Shown: piece after piece, positions 38,146-48,899 of the stretch
Position numbering within the stretch: position 1 is the stretch's first letter
How the letters are laid out: every line of letters begins with the position of its first letter
Source of the DNA: a virus
Lineage: Duplodnaviria; Caudoviricetes
Strand: one strand, 5' to 3'
IMG/VR virus record: IMGVR_UViG_3300029305_005387
Length of the DNA stretch: 64,000 bases
The notes under the pieces: generated by a model
Databases searched by the model: none
Seen by the model: the letters and a program-made list of their open reading frames with translations, nothing else
Told to the model about the DNA's origin: nothing
Made by a program: the position numbers and the translations under genes

Positions 38146-38664
38146 TTATTTATCGCTAAGGATAGCGAGAGAGATGTTTTCAATTGGACTTACGTCATAC
38201 TTAATAGCAGAAGTTGTTCTATCAATAAGCATGTTTATAGGCGAGAAACCTGCAAACATATCCCAAAACTCTTCCATTTCAAGTCCTAATGTATTTAGTA
38301 CATCTCCATCGAAGTCGGCATTGAGACCTGGGAGGATTGCACTAGGTATGGCTAAGGTGTAATCCTCTGCATCCGGTTTAATCCTTCTGACTCTCATTAA
38401 AAGTATACTTCCGAACGTTATTGTTGGATTTCTGTTAAGAATAATCTTAATATTATCATTCTCAACTATTCTGCACATTACACCATATACGTATGGATCA
38501 AAGTTAAATTTACTTTCTAAGAAATTTGTTGCTTTTGTAATAGTCCAACCTTTATCTTTGATGATATAAGCAAGGATATGTCCTTTAAACTGCTCAATAA
38601 AAGCTTTATAACTCATATCAACTTCATCAATCTTGAGGGTGGGATCTAATACTATGACTTGTCG
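38146..38664 (-). CDS. RNA polymerase beta' N-terminal/catalytic part, exon 2
   Basis: LNRNPT and catalytic NADFDGD; splices to exon 1 to give NFSG|RQVIVLDP, matching the RpoC DYSGRSVIV motif. Confidence 0.9.
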   Translation of the reverse strand, partial: RQVIVLDPTLKIDEVDMSYKAFIEQFKGHILAYIIKDKGWTITKATNFLESKFNFDPYVYGVMCRIVENDNIKIILNRNPTITFGSILLMRVRRIKPDAEDYTLAIPSAILPGLNADFDGDVLNTLGLEMEEFWDMFAGFSPINMLIDRTTSAIKYDVSPIENISLAILSDK

Positions 38665-40031
38665 CATTATCTTCATACTGTATCGCAACTACAGTACCGA
38701 GCTTTTAACTCTGCTACTGCTTTCGCAGTACGACAGTAGAATTTCACTACTGAAGAACCATTACGGTTGATGAGACTATATCTTCATCATATATTCTGTT
38801 ACCAAATATATGATGTCCCTCCATTTCCCATTACTATATTAATATTACTATTAATAACCTCCATTAGCTTTGAGGGGTAATAACCACTATATTATACAAC
38901 GTATTTCTCGTTATACATAGTTAGGTTAATAGTCGTTGAACGTTGTTCTGCATTAATACAGAACCTTCGCTGCCTATGATTATCCAATCCTAAATGATTT
39001 TACCATCCGATAGTCGTTATACTATCTGCTACACTGTACATCACTGTCAGCTGCGGTTATTTAGGCTCTAAGGAACTTCCGGCAATTAAAAGGAAGCAGG
39101 CCAAACAAGTTTATTCATCTGATTGCTGATTTAATTCATAACCAAAGATAAATTCTTCTTCAATTTCATATTCTTTTTCTTTTTCAGAAGATTTATCTAA
39201 TTTACATCGAAATTTTTTCTTGGAAGGATTTAGATAATTATTATCTCTGATACGCCATTTAATATAATTAATATTAGCTTTTGTATCAGGTAAACCTACT
39301 ATCTGTAAAATTTCTTTTTTACTTCGTAATCCTCTTTTTAGTAATTCATCTATCATATTATTTTGCTCTTTAGAACGATCTCCATATGTATTAAATTTTG
39401 GAATATTATATTCACTTCTAATTTCATTCCAATTTCCGTTATATTTTATTCCACTAACAAATGCAGTCGTAACATTTAATTTCTTAGCTATATGATAGAT
39501 GGATTTACCTTTTTCTAACATTTTACAGACTTTTCTAATAGTCTTTTCGTCATGTGATGGTTTTAAACCAGTTTTCATAGCATGTTCAATATTTTCTTTG
39601 AATGATACCCATTCAAGATTATCTACACAATTGTTAGTTTTCACTCCATCAATATGATTCACTTGAGGTTTATTTTCTGGATCAGGGTTAGGGATAAATG
39701 TTAAGGCTACTAACCTATGAACACTATAATGTTTATCCTTTCCATTAATACTTAATGCTACTCTTGGATATCCACCTCGCGTATAATCAATATGAACTCG
39801 CAATTGTTTCCCAGTAACAATATTTCGAACATTACCATATGAACTGATTTCATAGTTTGATTCAATACCATCAGTTTTAAATCTCTTCCATTCTTCTTTC
39901 TTTGATGTAAACGATTCATAATCTTTATAATCAATCATGTTTAAATTCCTCCTTCATATTTTTTACTATTATGTAAGAAGAAATTTAATTTAAAAATCAG
40001 CAATTTATACAGGGATAACCATGTCGATAAA
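38665..40031 (-). mobile_element. Group I intron (1367 nt) carrying an HNH homing endonuclease gene in the P1 loop
   Basis: Core elements AAUUGCCGGAAG, GUUCAACGACUA, AAGAUAUAGUC; ends AUAAUG; IGS GCCUG pairs with exon CAGGU (U-G); P10 ACUUGUU pairs with exon 2 GACAAGU. Confidence 0.9.
39111..39938 (-). CDS. Intron-encoded HNH homing endonuclease (NUMOD4 plus HNH)
   Basis: [22 protein letters not shown]...[17 protein letters not shown]. Confidence 0.92.
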
Positions 40032-41580: not shown

Positions 41581-42198
41581 TTATATTTTCTTAAAGCATT
41601 CTCTGATCACATATGCGTCCCATAAAGAGTTATGTTTTGCATTACAAAGTAAATCTTTGAATATAGAATTATTTCTAATGGATGACAACTCTCCATTTGT
41701 TAAAAATCCTTCTCGGGAAACATCCGGATCAATTCCATTACACTGAAAAGCTGTACATAAATCTGCAGGAATATAGTAAATACATCCTTGTAGATCTTTT
41801 GCATTACCAGATTTACAGATTAGATTGTTAAATAATACCCAATCATATGCTAAACAATCGGAGTACATCTGAATTGTCTGATTTGAAATCTTTGCTTCTC
41901 TTTCAAGCCATTCGGTTAACATCTCATGGATTTCTCGAGAACTACCTGTCATCATAACATTCATATGAATTCCATCAAGATGACATTGTTCTACTTTAAC
42001 TCCTTCTTTGAATAACAGATTTTCTACAACATGTTCTTTGACAAAATCATCAACCTGTGAACGATCATAATCATTGAATTCAGCATAGAAATAGTGTCCA
42101 TTTTCAGTAATACAACCGATAGAAATCAGTGTAGTTGTCTGATGTAATCCAGTAAATTCACAATCGAAATATACTGGTAACATATCACGTTTGTCCAT
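41581..42198 (-). CDS. DEDDh 3'-5' exonuclease
   Basis: YFDCEFTG (ExoI), AYDW (ExoII), HNSLWDA (ExoIII). Confidence 0.85.
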   Translation of the reverse strand: MDKRDMLPVYFDCEFTGLHQTTTLISIGCITENGHYFYAEFNDYDRSQVDDFVKEHVVENLLFKEGVKVEQCHLDGIHMNVMMTGSSREIHEMLTEWLEREAKISNQTIQMYSDCLAYDWVLFNNLICKSGNAKDLQGCIYYIPADLCTAFQCNGIDPDVSREGFLTNGELSSIRNNSIFKDLLCNAKHNSLWDAYVIRECFKKI

Positions 42199-42219
42199 GT
42201 AAATAATCTCCTTCCTTTG

Positions 42220-43107
42220 TTAATCTTCCATACTGATACTCTCTAAAGAAATGGAAGTATTTGCTAAGATTAAGAAATTGATAAGTTGTTTCATCATTTC
42301 TCTCTTATTAATTGTAATTTCCTCATCTAAGAGTTTTGGTTCTTCATACAGAACGAATCTGTATTTACTATTTGCAAAAGTGATTAGAAACTTCTTAATG
42401 ATATCTGGATTCATATCAATGATTGTAGAGTAAAAATGTTCAATTAGATATAAATAATCTGGATCATTATCCAAGTATTTAGTATCTTTGAGATAAACTT
42501 TTTCTCCTACAGGTGTTTCTTCAATATTTGCAGTAATAATCAGTGCCAATGTAGAATCAAGCAACGTATCTTTAGTAACATTGAAACGTTTCATGATATC
42601 TTTACGCATGATCAATAACAGTTTATGCCAACCAATGTTCTTTAGAAGAGCAAATTCTTGAGCCGATAATGTATGATTAAAGAAATAAATCTCAATCATC
42701 TGTTGTTGTAATCTGTTTGGTTTCAAATTACGTCTATAATATTCAATTTCTTCAGGCGTAATTTCTTTCTCATACTTTTTGAATAATTTATCAACTAACT
42801 GATCCATATCCATAGTACAAGTGAAAACATATCCTTCATTTACTTTCATTTTTGATGCACGATAACGGTCATTCTTAGAATTACCATCTGCATCAGGAAC
42901 TATCGAGGTCTCTATGAGATTTCTTCGGAAAACTTGCATTACGAAAATACTAATATGAGTATTAACAATGCTAGCTAGGAATGAAAGTACTCTCTCATTT
43001 GGTTGTTCCTTTACTCTATTCCATGTTTGAGGTAATTGGAATTTTACCATATTATCAATACAAATGTTTCTGGTCATAATTTGATTAATAATAATAGACT
43101 TGTCCTT
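42220..43107 (-). CDS. Exon 2 of a spliced ~569-aa protein (putative non-virion RNAP promoter-specificity subunit)
   Basis: In frame with 43565-44386 after removing the intron; function inferred from size, helical character and location among RNAP/DNAP genes. Confidence 0.5.
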   Translation of the reverse strand, partial: KDKSIIINQIMTRNICIDNMVKFQLPQTWNRVKEQPNERVLSFLASIVNTHISIFVMQVFRRNLIETSIVPDADGNSKNDRYRASKMKVNEGYVFTCTMDMDQLVDKLFKKYEKEITPEEIEYYRRNLKPNRLQQQMIEIYFFNHTLSAQEFALLKNIGWHKLLLIMRKDIMKRFNVTKDTLLDSTLALIITANIEETPVGEKVYLKDTKYLDNDPDYLYLIEHFYSTIIDMNPDIIKKFLITFANSKYRFVLYEEPKLLDEEITINKREMMKQLINFLILANTSISLESISMED

Positions 43108-43564
43108 CATTTATCTTACACATTGATTCGCAACATCAATGCAGCAACTTAATGCTTCTACTACTCTCGTAGTACGACATCTGTATCTCAACAGATGAAG
43201 TGACATAAATGTCAGATGAGACTATATCTTCACCATATATTCTGTTACCAAATATATGATGTCCCTCCATTTCCCATTACTTCGTTCCTTGTCAAGGTTT
43301 ACGAACCTCATTAGCTTAGGCGGTACTCTACTGACTACATTGTGTAAGTTGTTTAAATTCTATACACGTAGTTGACCGATAGTCGTTGAACTTTCATCTC
43401 TTATTCAGAGATGATTAGCTGCGACGATTGACTCTATATCTAACTTTTTTACTATACCTTGAAACATTACTTCTTGCCACTAACTCATCACTGAATTAGT
43501 TTAGTAGTTAGATCTTAACAAGTCTTCCCCGCAATTAAAAGGGAAAGGGTTCAAACATAAGTCA
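43108..43564 (-). mobile_element. ORF-less group I intron (457 nt)
   Basis: AAUUGCGGGGAAG, GUUCAACGACUA, AAGAUAUAGUC core; block near 43217-43280 almost identical to 38771-38834; ends AUAAAUG. Confidence 0.88.
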
Positions 43565-44386
43565 GCCCTCAATCTCTTGTTGTTCAAAGATGCTTCTATT
43601 GAAAGACATTGAAGACGAAACCTTTGAACTGATGTACATGTAAATTTTGTTATAAATGTCAAAATCCCATTCAAACAAATAGAATGTATCTACATAAAAT
43701 CTGTAGAATAAATCAATATTCTTCTGAATATTGATTGATCTCATTACAGCGAAATGATTAATAATAAATGAAAGAATCTTAATACAGAAACTAATTTGAA
43801 GCATTGCTTTTACATGAACATTTAAGAATTCCAAAGATTTCTTTTTACGTTGCATGATAGAAATCATATCAGGATTAGTAAGATTCTTACTGTTTTCAGC
43901 TTCTATATCATCAACATAATTCTCTTCTACCATTCGTGTAATCTTTTCTTTCATTGAATCTGTGAAAATAGTCTTATAACACAGATCTTTGAATGCATCA
44001 AAGTTTTTCATAGTATAAGAGATATTATCCACATCAATGAGATACTTGATACGAAATAGAGCAGTGATTAATTCACCCTCTTGATCATACATAGTCTCAA
44101 AGAAATTCAATTCCTCACACATTCTTGGTAGATAAGATGAATACGATAACTTAGTGACTTTCCATTCATTCAACGCAGCAATATTTTCATTATTCAAATG
44201 AGCTAACTCTTTGTCAAATTTGATGATCATTGTTTTAGGTACTGAATGAAAACGGACATCATCTGGATGTATCTTCCATTTTATCCAATACGATTCCCTC
44301 CCATTAGGGAACTGATGTTTCTTGTATTCCCATCTAGGAATTTCTTCCGGCTTTTCGACCGGTTTTACTGATGTTAATTGTAACAT
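43565..44386 (-). CDS. Exon 1 of the spliced ~569-aa protein
   Basis: 274 codons ending EIEG; the TGA is the first three intron nucleotides; GGAGG RBS. Confidence 0.7.
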
Positions 44387-44404: not shown

Positions 44405-45142
44405 TTAAGTTATATTTTCGAAAGCATCTTTCAAGAAGTTCATATCCATTGCAGTTGTAGTTCCTAATCTAATGAATGGATGTCTAGTCATCAGATCTGG
44501 TAAATCATATTTAAAAGTTTTTAAGTTATCAATGTAATTATATCGATAATCACTTGCAACTAAAACGTGAGAATATGTACCAGTTAGAATTTCTGAAGCT
44601 TCTTTTGCTAGTTCGATATCCGAGAATATATACGTAAAATTATTATCACATTTCTCAATAGCTTTACGTAAATCTCCATGTAAATACTGGCAATTGATTC
44701 CTTGAAAAATATTTTGGCAATCTTTCTTTATGAACGGCTCTTCGTGTTCACTGTAAACATACACTGGAAAGTTCATATGCTGTTGTCGATATACATAGAA
44801 CATTCTATCTACATTAAGCATCGGACTTAACGTATAGATAGATTCATCATCTTTCATTAAATCGAATAATAATTTATCCAATTCTTTAGGATCTATTTGG
44901 TGTGCCCAATCCAATTGCTTCAATGGATTAATATATCTTCGATTCTTATACCATTCTATTATTGACGTAATAGAAAAATCCTTGATGATATCTACTGGTA
45001 ATCCATAAGTTTTTTCAGTAAGAATCATTTTAATTACCGTATATAAATACGCTGGTTTTACGATATCATGATACTGAAGAAACATTCCAGCTCCGCCAAC
45101 AAAGAAAACTTTTGTATCAAATGTCAGACTATTTTGAATCAA
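44405..45142 (-). CDS. Hypothetical protein (possible degenerate HAD-like fold)
   Basis: 245 aa, TTG start with GGAGG RBS. Confidence 0.55.
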   Translation of the reverse strand: MIQNSLTFDTKVFFVGGAGMFLQYHDIVKPAYLYTVIKMILTEKTYGLPVDIIKDFSITSIIEWYKNRRYINPLKQLDWAHQIDPKELDKLLFDLMKDDESIYTLSPMLNVDRMFYVYRQQHMNFPVYVYSEHEEPFIKKDCQNIFQGINCQYLHGDLRKAIEKCDNNFTYIFSDIELAKEASEILTGTYSHVLVASDYRYNYIDNLKTFKYDLPDLMTRHPFIRLGTTTAMDMNFLKDAFENIT

Positions 45143-45219
45143 ATAATCCCACCTCCTTCTTCATTTTTGGATAAAAATAATACACGGGAGTTTTAAACTC
45201 CCGTGTATTATGTTATGTC

Positions 45220-45942
45220 TTAATTTGGAACTTGGTAAGAATCAAATGATTGAGAAGGTCCACCATATGAATTATTTTGTTTAGGTCTGTTATTATACTG
45301 CTGATTATTATTGTTATAAGAATTTGGACGTCTGTAGTTATTATTGTTATATTGCTTATTATAAGCACCCTGCTGATTTTGTCCGCCGTTCTTATTACCA
45401 CCATTCTCATTGAGTTTGGCGTAATCGTCAGTAAGTTTATCAAGATGACGATCTGCATTGATACCAGTTAAGTATCCTTCAATAGTCATCATAAATGCAC
45501 CTAAACCACTTTCAATGGTTCTAGTCATGATATTTCCATTCTCTTTCACTTGCTGCTTAATTGTCTGGAATTTAAATGGAATTGTGACATTATTCTTCGT
45601 AATACTGAATACAGTTTCCATTTCTCCATCGACACCAAGTTTACGTTCCAAAGTCAGACTTGCTCCTAAACAAGGAACAGATAAATTTGTTTCATTAATC
45701 TTTCCATCTAAGATATCTTTAGATGTCTGATACAATGCGTATGCACCTTCAAAATTAACTGTCGTCTGCTGTCCATGTTTACTATCATACTGAGAGCGTC
45801 CATTCTGATCCTTTCCATTAAAAGGATATAACTGAAAACTCAAGTTAGTATTATAGAACTTGATGTTCAAACAAGAAACTCCTTCGCTATACATGTTTCT
45901 GATTTGGGTTGATGTTGATGGTCTGTTGTTATTGTTTGCCAT
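45220..45942 (-). CDS. Hypothetical protein with N/Q-rich tail (possible ssDNA-binding protein)
   Basis: Beta-rich core and low-complexity tail, located in the replication cluster; function is a guess. Confidence 0.4.
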   Translation of the reverse strand: MANNNNRPSTSTQIRNMYSEGVSCLNIKFYNTNLSFQLYPFNGKDQNGRSQYDSKHGQQTTVNFEGAYALYQTSKDILDGKINETNLSVPCLGASLTLERKLGVDGEMETVFSITKNNVTIPFKFQTIKQQVKENGNIMTRTIESGLGAFMMTIEGYLTGINADRHLDKLTDDYAKLNENGGNKNGGQNQQGAYNKQYNNNNYRRPNSYNNNNQQYNNRPKQNNSYGGPSQSFDSYQVPN

Positions 45943-46783
45943 ATAAAAGTTCCTCCTTCACTTGTTGTACCATTGTTATATGAGTGATTATTTCTACCTC
46001 GAACTCTTCATACTGATAAAGTTTTGGACTATACTTTCTTAAGAAATTACCAGATACTTTACCATCTTCAAATAGTTCATATACTTCTTGATTGTTACAA
46101 TATTTTAGAAATTCCATCGGTCCTACTTCTGTAACAAATGGACTATATGCGGTTAACATGTTTCTTATAGTCCTATAATATTCTCTGTCATCTTCAATAA
46201 CAGTTTTCATCTTTGAATTAATATCTTTTGAGATAACTGTCAAGAAATTATGCTTTGCATTGAGAATAAAGAATTCATATAATCTTCTGAATGCATATTC
46301 GATTTGATCTCTATCAAATTCTTCAGAATCAATTGTCATAATTGTGATTGACAATCTTTGCTCTAAAAGATTCTTCATCAATGAAATAAATCTGTCATGA
46401 ATAATATCAAGAGCATCTTTAATATCTGATGGATGCTCCTCACCAATATCATCATTTACAGCTGAAATTGATGCGTGTAGCTGCTCGTAGAAAATATCTA
46501 CATAATTTGTCCTATCATCAGATCCAATATAATCATTAAACTGATCAATTATTGATTCTGCGATTGTGTCATATGGATATTCTCCTAAGAAAGCAGATTT
46601 TTCAATTAATTCAGTATGGTCAATTGGTTCATCTCCACCTGACATTGAATCCATTCCCGTTTCTTTAAAATCCATAGAAATTCCAGTTGTTTTAGATCCA
46701 TTGGATTCTTGTAAATATTGAGCATTCCATGGATCTGTCCAATCAATTTCATCACCACGAATGCTATAAGGTAATATTGCCAT
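45929..46783 (-). CDS. Hypothetical protein
   Basis: 284-aa ORF with GAGGTG RBS. Confidence 0.65.
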   Translation of the reverse strand: MAILPYSIRGDEIDWTDPWNAQYLQESNGSKTTGISMDFKETGMDSMSGGDEPIDHTELIEKSAFLGEYPYDTIAESIIDQFNDYIGSDDRTNYVDIFYEQLHASISAVNDDIGEEHPSDIKDALDIIHDRFISLMKNLLEQRLSITIMTIDSEEFDRDQIEYAFRRLYEFFILNAKHNFLTVISKDINSKMKTVIEDDREYYRTIRNMLTAYSPFVTEVGPMEFLKYCNNQEVYELFEDGKVSGNFLRKYSPKLYQYEEFEVEIITHITMVQQVKEELLYGKQ

Positions 46784-46844
46784 ATTTTATCACCTCTCTT
46801 TTATTTGAATATTACCAATAAAATGTTCTTCTCTTAATTAGTTT

Positions 46845-48899
46845 TTATAAACTAATTAAACATGATGTGATACTTGCGTTTCCATTAGGAGTCTTCTGTA
46901 CGATATCTTCAACTTTCAATGCATCTAATACTGATTTGAATGAAGATATTACATCAGAAATGATGAGATCATAATCAATTAACGGAATTGCCCATTCTGG
47001 AATTTCTTTTGCTGTATTAGGAATACATAGATATTTCAATCCAGACTTTTGTATATCTTTATCAGGACTCATAAAGATCTTTTCTTTAAGTTGCTCATAT
47101 TCTGTTGGATATTTATATCGAATCTTTTCAATATCCATAATATTACTCACTGACAACTTCAGAATATATACTCGATCTAATGAGTTAATCTTTTTATCTG
47201 AATACATCTCATTCCAAACAGCTGCTCCTCTGAATACTGGTAAACTCCAAGCTTTACTAACTTCTTTACCATTATCATCATATGATTTAGAATATCCTTC
47301 TTTTGCTTTATACTGCTGAACTTTTAAGAATCTAATACCACCATTTTTCAAGTCATCATGAATCTCTCGTTCAAATTTCTTCAATTCAGCCATCATTTCA
47401 TGAAGTTCTAGATCTTCTGAATACAAGATATGATCACATAATAACTTTTGGAACTTCTGAGATACTTCATCCGTAACACCAGCTTTAATAAAGTCAACAC
47501 CTTTGATTTCAGGTTTAAACGGATATATGATGTTTCCTTCTCTTAGTACAATAGATGCTGCGTATCTCTTCTTAACTAACATTAAGAAGAAACGTCTAAA
47601 CATAAACTCATTCTTCATGGTTAATTCAGCTCTTGAAGGTTCATCCATATTATGACATCTTCCATAGTAATCAAGAATTTTTGCGACACCTCTATCCAAA
47701 CTAGCAGCCAATACATTTACAAGTATCATTTCGTTATACATTTTCTTCCTACCAAATGTTTCATTTGGGAATATCTTATTTAATACAAATGATACAAAAA
47801 GATCTGCATTAATGATATTAGAGTCAGTATCAACAAGAAGAACTGTATTTCTCATGTGATTATTCAATTTGATTATTGAGTCAGGCGTAAGATATTCAAC
47901 AAATACAAATTGAGTCATAATATCAATGAATTTATTCATATCTTCTTTAATACATTCAGGAATATCATATGGGTCAAGAAACATCTGTTTCGACATCCAT
48001 TTATTATATTTCTCAGCATTTTCAAATTGCCCTGTAAATTCAGATGGTACCTCATTTATAGATGCTTCATAATTCGGTAATGCTGATAATACTGAACTTA
48101 AAAGATTTTGAATCTTCGGATGTTTATATATCAAATCTTTAAAATTATTTGCATAATAAAGATATGTTAACTCATCTGATGTTCTATTATTTACATATGC
48201 ATCAATTGCTGGAATGTCGTCTAAACCAAGAGTTACGAAATGTATCTTAATACGTCTACTTACTTCTGCAGCAGTTGGACGTTCAATCCATTTAGGAATT
48301 TTTTCATCCTTTTCAATTACTTTATTCATCCAATCAAAACATTCATCAATATGAAAGAATTTATGATTGTCACCAACATAACCCTCGAAGAATGCTGCCA
48401 TTGTTGTAATAATTGACTGTGCCATTAGGGTTGTTGCTGCTGGTGAATACTTTGTATAGAATGCCGCTGTAGGAGCTCCTGATCCTCCATATTCAGCATT
48501 CATAATAACTTTCTTGTTATTCTGATCCAAATCTAATGATGCATATTCATCTGAACCTGGTTTATATGAAAACATTTTCTTTTTAACTTCTTTTCGTCCT
48601 CGTTTTAATCCTCGTAACATATTAGATGTAGGGGACAACAGTTCTTCTGGTTGACAATAGAAAGTTCCATTGCCAGAAATAACTGGATTTTCTTTATCTA
48701 TCCACCCACATAATTTAGTTAATGTTATTTCAGCATTATCTCCAGTGACGTTATTATCCATAATAATAGTTGGATCTTTCAGATGGTTCTTCATTATAGA
48801 TTCAATTGCATCTTCAACGTCAGATTTCTTTAAAGAAGGATCCATTTTCATGATCGTTTTTGTTGCAATTGTTAAATATAATTTCTTAAAGTACTTCAT
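46845..48899 (-). CDS. Family-B DNA polymerase, polymerase portion (split jumbo-phage type)
   Basis: Q...KVIMNAEYG (motif B), VDTDS (motif C), KKRYA, IKGVDF; no exonuclease motifs seen. Confidence 0.85.
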   Translation of the reverse strand: MKYFKKLYLTIATKTIMKMDPSLKKSDVEDAIESIMKNHLKDPTIIMDNNVTGDNAEITLTKLCGWIDKENPVISGNGTFYCQPEELLSPTSNMLRGLKRGRKEVKKKMFSYKPGSDEYASLDLDQNNKKVIMNAEYGGSGAPTAAFYTKYSPAATTLMAQSIITTMAAFFEGYVGDNHKFFHIDECFDWMNKVIEKDEKIPKWIERPTAAEVSRRIKIHFVTLGLDDIPAIDAYVNNRTSDELTYLYYANNFKDLIYKHPKIQNLLSSVLSALPNYEASINEVPSEFTGQFENAEKYNKWMSKQMFLDPYDIPECIKEDMNKFIDIMTQFVFVEYLTPDSIIKLNNHMRNTVLLVDTDSNIINADLFVSFVLNKIFPNETFGRKKMYNEMILVNVLAASLDRGVAKILDYYGRCHNMDEPSRAELTMKNEFMFRRFFLMLVKKRYAASIVLREGNIIYPFKPEIKGVDFIKAGVTDEVSQKFQKLLCDHILYSEDLELHEMMAELKKFEREIHDDLKNGGIRFLKVQQYKAKEGYSKSYDDNGKEVSKAWSLPVFRGAAVWNEMYSDKKINSLDRVYILKLSVSNIMDIEKIRYKYPTEYEQLKEKIFMSPDKDIQKSGLKYLCIPNTAKEIPEWAIPLIDYDLIISDVISSFKSVLDALKVEDIVQKTPNGNASITSCLISL

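Follow-up and report, generated by a model that had tools for sequence, protein, structure and literature searches.

A phage group I intron in a sigma-like RNA polymerase subunit gene with a probable natural C·A pair at its 5' splice site

Few base pairs in RNA biology are as strongly conserved as the U·G wobble at the 5' splice site of group I introns. The view that the ribozyme recognizes the shape of this wobble, and not its sequence, rests mainly on laboratory mutants. Fungal mitochondrial group I introns with a C as the last exon nucleotide were reportedly described by Hur and Waring in 1995, and in these introns the C is said to form a C:G pair.

[quoted passage not shown] Natural introns with a C at this position include the 72 "Leu.3Cg" tRNA-Leu introns of Proteobacteria, in which the C forms a C:G pair (Williams 2020, bioRxiv 10.1101/2020.01.27.920355). 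A c-A combination has been engineered into the Tetrahymena cis system, where it supported accurate two-step splicing with at least 54% circularisation; only u-G was more reactive (PMC11417360). A passage in PMC5769748, citing Doudna, Cormack & Szostak 1989, states that C·A+ can substitute for G·U in P1. Of the replacements for U·G made in the laboratory, C·A is known to work best (PMC11417360; PMC5769748). No published description of a natural C·A splice-site pair was found in open-access text, and a prior description is possible.

The window analysed here is a stretch of 64,000 nucleotides from a virus of the class Caudoviricetes (IMG/VR record IMGVR_UViG_3300029305_005387). On its minus strand, a conserved gene of about 568 amino acids is split by a group I intron (Table 1). 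An earlier note on this DNA, made from the letters alone, had placed the intron at 43108-43564, and these coordinates stand. The Rfam model RF00028 matches 43613..43199(-) over model positions 1-253 (E 3.2e-11), and its score of 55.0 bits exceeds the gathering score, which is 50. With a probability of roughly 0.8, a C·A pair in P1, in place of U·G, would mark the 5' splice site of this presumably functional, subgroup-IA-like phage intron.

Table 1. Coordinates of the intron, its exons, its pairing elements and the sibling intron in the window
Feature	Coordinates	Strand	Basis or remark
Group I intron, ORF-less, 457 nt	43108..43564	-	Rfam RF00028 match; ends set by homolog alignment
Exon 1 of the sigma-like (gp226/gp68-like) gene, 274 codons, ends GAG AUU GAG GGC	43565..44386	-	ORF listing
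Last exon nucleotide (position -1), C, third position of the Gly codon	43565	-	Homolog alignment, junction enumeration
P10 guide GACUU-AU-GUUU, pairs with 3'-exon nucleotides 3-11 (GGACAAGUC)	43553..43563	-	RNAduplex, -6.1 kcal/mol
Internal guide sequence ACCCUU (P1 3' strand), A 43550 opposite C 43565	43545..43550	-	Register and covariation
P3 5' strand UCCCUU, abuts the guide directly (no P2)	43539..43544	-	Pairs with 43267-43262; compensatory changes in 5 of 6 pairs
P3 3' strand GAGGGA	43262..43267	-	RNAalifold
J8/7 and P7 3' strand, GAAGAUAUAGUC, catalytic core motif	43220..43231	-	Rfam alignment
Omega G, terminal G of the intron	43108	-	Junction enumeration; same-site relatives alike
Exon 2, 295 codons, begins AAG GAC AAG UCU (KDKS)	42223..43107	-	ORF listing, homologs; stop at 42220-42222
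Sibling group I intron, RNA polymerase beta'-like gene, canonical U·G	38665..40031	-	Exon CAGGU, guide GCCUG; register reference

The splice junction was placed by comparison with homologs without an intron. When exon 2 was used to look for longer proteins, 109 homologs with 61-80% identity were found on contigs of up to about 300 kb, 108 of them full-length (556-576 aa) and one N-terminally truncated. Exon 1 is 100% identical to P0110 and aligns with residues 1-274 of the intron-less homologs. Across the junction the 108 full-length proteins read E-x-E/D-G-K/R/F-D, nearly all of them as ...FEQQEIEGKDKSIIINQ..., which gives EIEGKDKS. In the window, a UGA directly follows the GGC of exon 1, and the 3' end of the intron, ...AAGAUAAAUG, is followed by AAG GAC AAG UCU. 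The uninterrupted reading of EIEGKDKS in the homologs therefore indicates that exon 1 ends with GGC and that the intron ends with a G before AAG GAC. The spliced junction is expected to join the 3' end of exon 1, ...GAGAUUGAGGGC, to the start of exon 2, AAGGACAAGUCU.

All combinations of donor and acceptor that reproduce the homolog protein were also enumerated. GGC/...AAAUG/AAG (slashes mark splice sites) is the only protein-compatible junction in the window with a G as the final intron nucleotide; the tied alternative, GGG/C...AAAU/G, ends in U. In all same-site relatives a final intron G directly precedes AAR GAY AAR. The intron is therefore 43564..43108, with C 43565 as the last exon nucleotide and G 43108 as its terminal G. 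This bears out the junction GAG GGC/AAG GAC (EIEG/KDKS) of the earlier note, which had called for alignment with intron-less homologs, and the competing product that it had named, EIEGYKS, occurs in none of these homologs.

The usual group I splice-site pair is absent from this junction, where the exon nucleotide is C and its partner A. It is absent as well from the C:G introns (Williams 2020) and from the group B IStrons (PMC4227781); membership in group I therefore rests on the core, and the locus is a variant within the family. When exon GAGGGC pairs with the guide ACCCUU (43550-43545) to form P1, A 43550 faces C 43565. This A lies 10 nt before UUUUAAUUGC, equivalent to 13 nt before the P4 motif AAUUGC. 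The wobble G of the ten relatives with U and G, and that of the sibling intron, lies exactly 13 nt before AAUUGC or AACUGC, and the C-bearing introns always have an A at this place. The placement of C opposite A in the register of the sibling's wobble G, as first proposed from the letters, is thus upheld by a spacing shared with 11 U·G introns.

An alignment of P1 from 14 relatives supports the same register. Its six-pair helix has 88% of the cells paired, as against at most 67% in slid registers, and compensatory changes are found in four of the six pairs. At the splice-site pair, ten rows have U with G, four have C with A, and none has a mixed combination. The Rfam alignment draws another P1 hairpin at 43609-43588. 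This hairpin lies inside the conserved coding sequence of exon 1 (FNRSIFEQQ...), and the P1 supported by the homologs was preferred.

Loci of relatives were taken from IMG/VR, JGI, ENA and Logan. No cultured relative was found among 50,697 phage records by megablast of the gene or by tblastn of both exons, and an exact-pattern scan of IMG/VR with a 19-nt core motif gave no match. At the site EIEG/KDKS, the state with C and A is found in the window, in its strain variant (L039 and L040), in L028 and L029, in L030, and in L031 and L032, all with GAGGGC/ and ...GAACCCUU.... The state with U and G is found in L022, L035, L036, L037 and L038, all with GAGGGU/ and a G in register. C and A have thus been kept in four diverged same-site introns, whose cores are 71-86% identical, and in one strain variant. 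C with G, or U with A, was not seen in any same-site intron.

The guides of the C- and A-bearing members are ACCCUU and CUGAACCC, and GAACCC is invariant in all of them. L036, with exon GAGGGU and guide GCCCUU, is the exact U·G twin of GAGGGC with ACCCUU. Similarly, the U·G guide of L038, CUGAGCCC, has its C·A counterpart in the guide CUGAACCC of L030; the comparison of AUCUGAGCCC in L038 with AUCUGAACCC in L030 reveals a single different guide base. The cores of these two introns are 82% identical, which is within the 71-86% range among the C·A members. The glycine codon of EIEG is GGU or GGA in intron-less alleles, and GGC in L010, which has an intron nearby. All three alleles exist, so that the last exon nucleotide, at a synonymous position, is free to vary.

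Judged by these comparisons, U·G and C·A have replaced each other in nature by a compensatory double substitution within one register, with the shape of the pair presumably retained. The pair in the window would then be a real variant of the group I 5' splice site, natural and conserved, whose covariation with U·G is clean. The C·A state may trace to a single evolutionary event. In the intron tree 8 of 10 inner branches are open, and a single C·A clade is neither supported nor refuted; the number of sequences therefore overstates their independence. A consistent compensating change in J4/5 was not found: an extra G after P4 is present in three of the four C·A members and absent from L031, and the U·G members vary.

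Three of the C·A relatives retain homing endonuclease ORFs of 291-316 aa. L028 (3540-4467) and L029 (3540-4415) carry nearly the same C·A intron, with an intact ORF of 291 aa in L029 and pieces of 97 and 108 aa in L028. Together with the window intron, which has no endonuclease ORF, they represent three stages of the homing-endonuclease life cycle.

The invariant GAACCC offers C 43565 another partner. C 43565 could form a Watson-Crick pair with G 43552, with two As bulged, and the junction would then be a C:G splice site, of a kind known in nature (Williams 2020, bioRxiv 10.1101/2020.01.27.920355). Within the C lineage, neither A 43550 nor the G that lies two nucleotides upstream of it varies, and covariation there gives no means of telling C·A from a bulged C-G pair. 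The comparison across lineages speaks against the bulged pair. The same G is already present in L038, the closest U·G relative (CUGAGCCC), and is thus older than the C and did not arise along with it; the C is tracked instead by a change from G to A at the 13-nt register. In the nearest-neighbour model, the bulged pair is also less favourable by 1.5 kcal/mol than a P1 with the C left unpaired (-2.6 as against -4.1), and it would abolish the 2-nt spacer between P1 and P10 that is common to the sibling and L038. Only a slim chance is therefore given to the bulged C-G pair.

The remainder of the ribozyme supports the C·A assignment as that of an intact intron. RNAalifold, applied to four ORF-less relatives, predicts 102 pairs, of which 43 show compensatory changes, and the core helices P3, P4-P6, P8 and P9 are backed by covariation. 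The P3/P7 pseudoknot is outside the reach of this program, and the P7 strands ACGACUA and UAGUC are present in the Rfam alignment. Between P7 and P3' the Rfam alignment places an insert of about 108 nt, in which RNAalifold predicts helices; this is the place where subgroup IA introns have P7.1/P7.2. ORF-less L038 scores 63.2 and 58.6 bits with RF00028. At the gathering threshold this model matches neither the endonuclease-carrying relatives, nor the 246-nt intron of L022, nor the sibling intron, and the endonuclease-carrying relatives and L022 are therefore taken as introns from the alignment of their exons and from their homology to the ORF-less members.

P10 had been invoked from the letters in support of the same 3' splice site, and the pairing does exist, with 9 bp, a 2-nt bulge and -6.1 kcal/mol by RNAduplex. 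Its register, exon nucleotide 3 with guide position -3, is shared by L030, L031 and L038, with one compensatory change (C-G as against U-A). Going by conservation, the window intron is presumably spliced.

Loss or poor efficiency of splicing would leave the gene to be expressed as two polypeptides, exon 1 up to the UGA and exon 2 from an AUG formed by the last three bases of the intron. [quoted passage not shown] The AUG belongs, however, to the conserved 3' tail of the intron family, and it is not preceded by a Shine-Dalgarno-like sequence (GUGUAAGAUAA AUG), whereas the endonuclease ORF of the sibling has AAGGAGG. The ribozyme core is intact and covarying, both exons are full-length, and endonuclease ORFs are kept in three C·A relatives. 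A dead intron would also have no reason to keep C and A, P10 and the terminal G at core identities of 71-86%. Expression as two polypeptides is accordingly considered very unlikely.

A further reading moves the cut one base upstream, after GAGGG, as in the group B IStrons, with the 3' splice site shifted as well and the same protein obtained through a GGG codon. G is the last exon nucleotide in group B IStron splicing (PMC4227781), and the introns of L028-L031 and L038 end in ...GG, so that the shifted junction is protein-compatible and still G-final in them. With this cut, however, the final intron nucleotide would be U in the window and in L039 and L040 (AAAU/G), and C in L022; only the junction whose last exon nucleotide is C or U yields a terminal G in every member of the family. 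The upstream cut is hence highly improbable.

An error of sequencing or assembly in an ordinary U·G intron can practically be dismissed: two independent ENA assemblies from other samples, ERZ28594041 and ERZ27316716, have the identical GAGGGC/UGACUUAUGUUUGAACCC, although the strain variant that they represent differs at 13 synonymous positions of exon 1, and further diverged same-site introns also have this C and A, so that the doubt raised by the earlier note itself about the C and the A falls away.

Within its P1 loop, the sibling intron of the RNA polymerase beta'-like gene carries an HNH/NUMOD4 endonuclease ORF, and its wobble G lies 13 nt before AAUUGC. Its P1 must close across about 920 nt, and Rfam misses it at every threshold used. 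The junction of its exons, NFSG/RQVIVLDP, presumably fits a conserved beta' motif. A block of 67 nt, comprising the P3' strand, P8, J8/7 and the P7' strand, is identical at 66 of 67 positions between the window intron, 43215-43281(-), and the sibling, 38770-38836(-). The same block differs by 16-32 mismatches between the window intron and its closest relatives, and outside the block the two window introns are no more than about 45-65% identical. In L038, too, an identical block is common to the two introns. This pattern looks like gene conversion between ribozyme cores resident in one genome. In addition, the octamer GACAAGUC is found near the splice site in both 3' exons, 43097-43104(-) and 38656-38663(-). 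The two genes are unrelated, and the octamer is the P10 target in both; it could be due to chance or be the trace of an intron finding a new site.

The host protein has no family in Pfam or PHROGs, no sequence-profile match in PDB, and nothing was returned for it by a feature search of the ESM Atlas. In AR9, the promoter-specificity, sigma-like subunit of the non-virion RNA polymerase is gp226, which has 464 residues (PMC9209446). The absence of a sequence signal is expected because gp226 and phiKZ gp68 share only about 11% identity (PMC9209446). A structure of an intron-less homolog was modelled with AF2 (AlphaFold) from 36 sequences, with a pLDDT of 75.7. It matched 7S01 chain A, from the AR9 non-virion RNA polymerase holoenzyme, with Z 24.5 over 426 aligned residues at 20% identity, and 7UM1_A, over the C-terminal domain only, with Z 14.9 and an rmsd of 3.4. 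Chain B of the phiKZ non-virion polymerase (gp68) followed at Z 11-12, as against Z 4.7 for the next unrelated match. Residues 3-464 of 7S01 chain A fit the domain limits of the 464-aa gp226 (PMC9209446).

The host protein is accordingly predicted to fold like AR9 gp226 and phiKZ gp68, with sigma2-, finger- and sigma4-like elements in two domains. Its function is suggested by this fold and by the neighbouring RNA polymerase genes; the ORF at 40005-40898 matches phrog_2987, RNA polymerase beta subunit, at 1.8e-25, in line with a phage that encodes a split multisubunit RNA polymerase of its own. The protein, which occurs in uncultured gut jumbo phages, seems to belong to the gp226/gp68 sigma-like family as a distant member, and the relatives of its gene lie on contigs of 200-300 kb. 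The label of putative late-transcription factor, given before any structural comparison, is a reasonable one by fold (gp226 Z 24.5; gp68 Z 11-12).

The host gene, 42223-44386(-) in the window and L003-L038 among the relatives, is a hot spot for introns. Group I introns are found at eight sites at least, with up to three per gene, after codons ~172, 250, 262, 266.7, 271.7, 274, 332.7 and 335. No fewer than two unrelated ribozyme lineages are found at the EIEG/K site, namely the family of the window intron and the type of L033, L034 and L025 (guide GCUCUC). The surrounding genes, 41581-42219(-), 44405-46786(-) and 46845-48899(-), form a replication and transcription module. It includes a DEDD-type exonuclease-like ORF (weak Rv2179c-like/RNase_T matches), three ORFs without a family and a divergent family-B DNA polymerase (phrog_2927).

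If the C·A assignment is right, P1 would consist of exon GAGGGC and guide ACCCUU, with the C·A pair in wobble geometry, probably as C·A+ with an adenine N1 that is assumed to be protonated. An external guanosine would attack after C 43565, the 3' splice site would be positioned by P10 (GACUU-AU-GUUU with GGACAAGUC of exon 2) together with the terminal G 43108, and exon ligation would restore ...EIEG-KDKS... in the sigma-like subunit of the phage non-virion RNA polymerase. As to its origin, the intron may have landed in, or drifted to, a GGC allele, which would create a C-G pair; a later change of the guide from G to A would then restore the wobble shape, and this is regarded as the simplest history. 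Co-conversion during homing would carry the splice-site C and the guide A together, because the two positions are only 15-40 nt apart.

The C·A pair might, we infer, make splicing slower or pH-sensitive, as the earlier note had suggested. A stronger proposal is that the pair is used and not merely tolerated, with protonated adenine required and the first step rate-limited or tuned by pH or ions; this is considered unlikely. If it were true, the output of this sigma-like subunit, which would serve the late RNA polymerase, would track the state of the infected cell, and the intron would be a natural timer or sensor at the level of the ribozyme in a gut or rumen phage.

The family provides a natural test of the shape model, in which close relatives at one site have either U with G or C with A, while Watson-Crick combinations are absent, the covariation that the model predicts. 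L036 and L038, set against the window intron and L030, are ready matched pairs for determining what a C·A splice site costs, how it depends on pH and which pKa its adenine has in an IA-like ribozyme. In annotation, intron finders that require a U as the last exon nucleotide will misplace C·A junctions. The design of circular and trans-splicing RNAs, in turn, gains a naturally optimised c-A context.

Among the known systems, the engineered c-A introns of Tetrahymena have the same substitution at the same position of P1, a look-alike of U·G that splices accurately in vitro. They are, however, laboratory mutants of an IC1 rRNA intron, whereas the C·A of the window is natural, lies in a protein-coding gene of a phage, is conserved and covaries with U·G. 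The Leu.3Cg and fungal C:G introns likewise have a natural C in place of U before the 5' splice site. In these introns the partner stays G and the pair is Watson-Crick, whereas in the window the partner is A and the wobble shape would be preserved; an A occupies the wobble register of all C-bearing members of the present family, in place of the guide G with which the final exon C of the Leu.3Cg introns pairs.

The group B IStrons (BcISt1 and its relatives; Tourasse et al. 2014, PMC4227781) are IA-type ribozymes of bacteria or phages that likewise have a non-canonical 5' splice site. They are cut one base upstream, with G as the last exon nucleotide and a U·G pair beside an internal loop, and carry an IS element, whereas the cut in the window lies in the normal register. 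The classical phage group I introns, of subgroup IA and with homing endonucleases, are those of T4 (td, nrdB and sunY), Twort and SPO1. They share with the window intron a compact A/U-rich ribozyme, a large insert between P7 and P3', an in-frame stop just past the 5' splice site and a position in a highly conserved segment of an essential information-processing gene. Both they and the window family have relatives with HNH/NUMOD endonuclease ORFs. Unlike these introns, which use U·G, the intron in the window uses, on the reading preferred here, a C·A pair; it is without P2 and is located in the gene of a sigma-like polymerase subunit of a jumbo phage.
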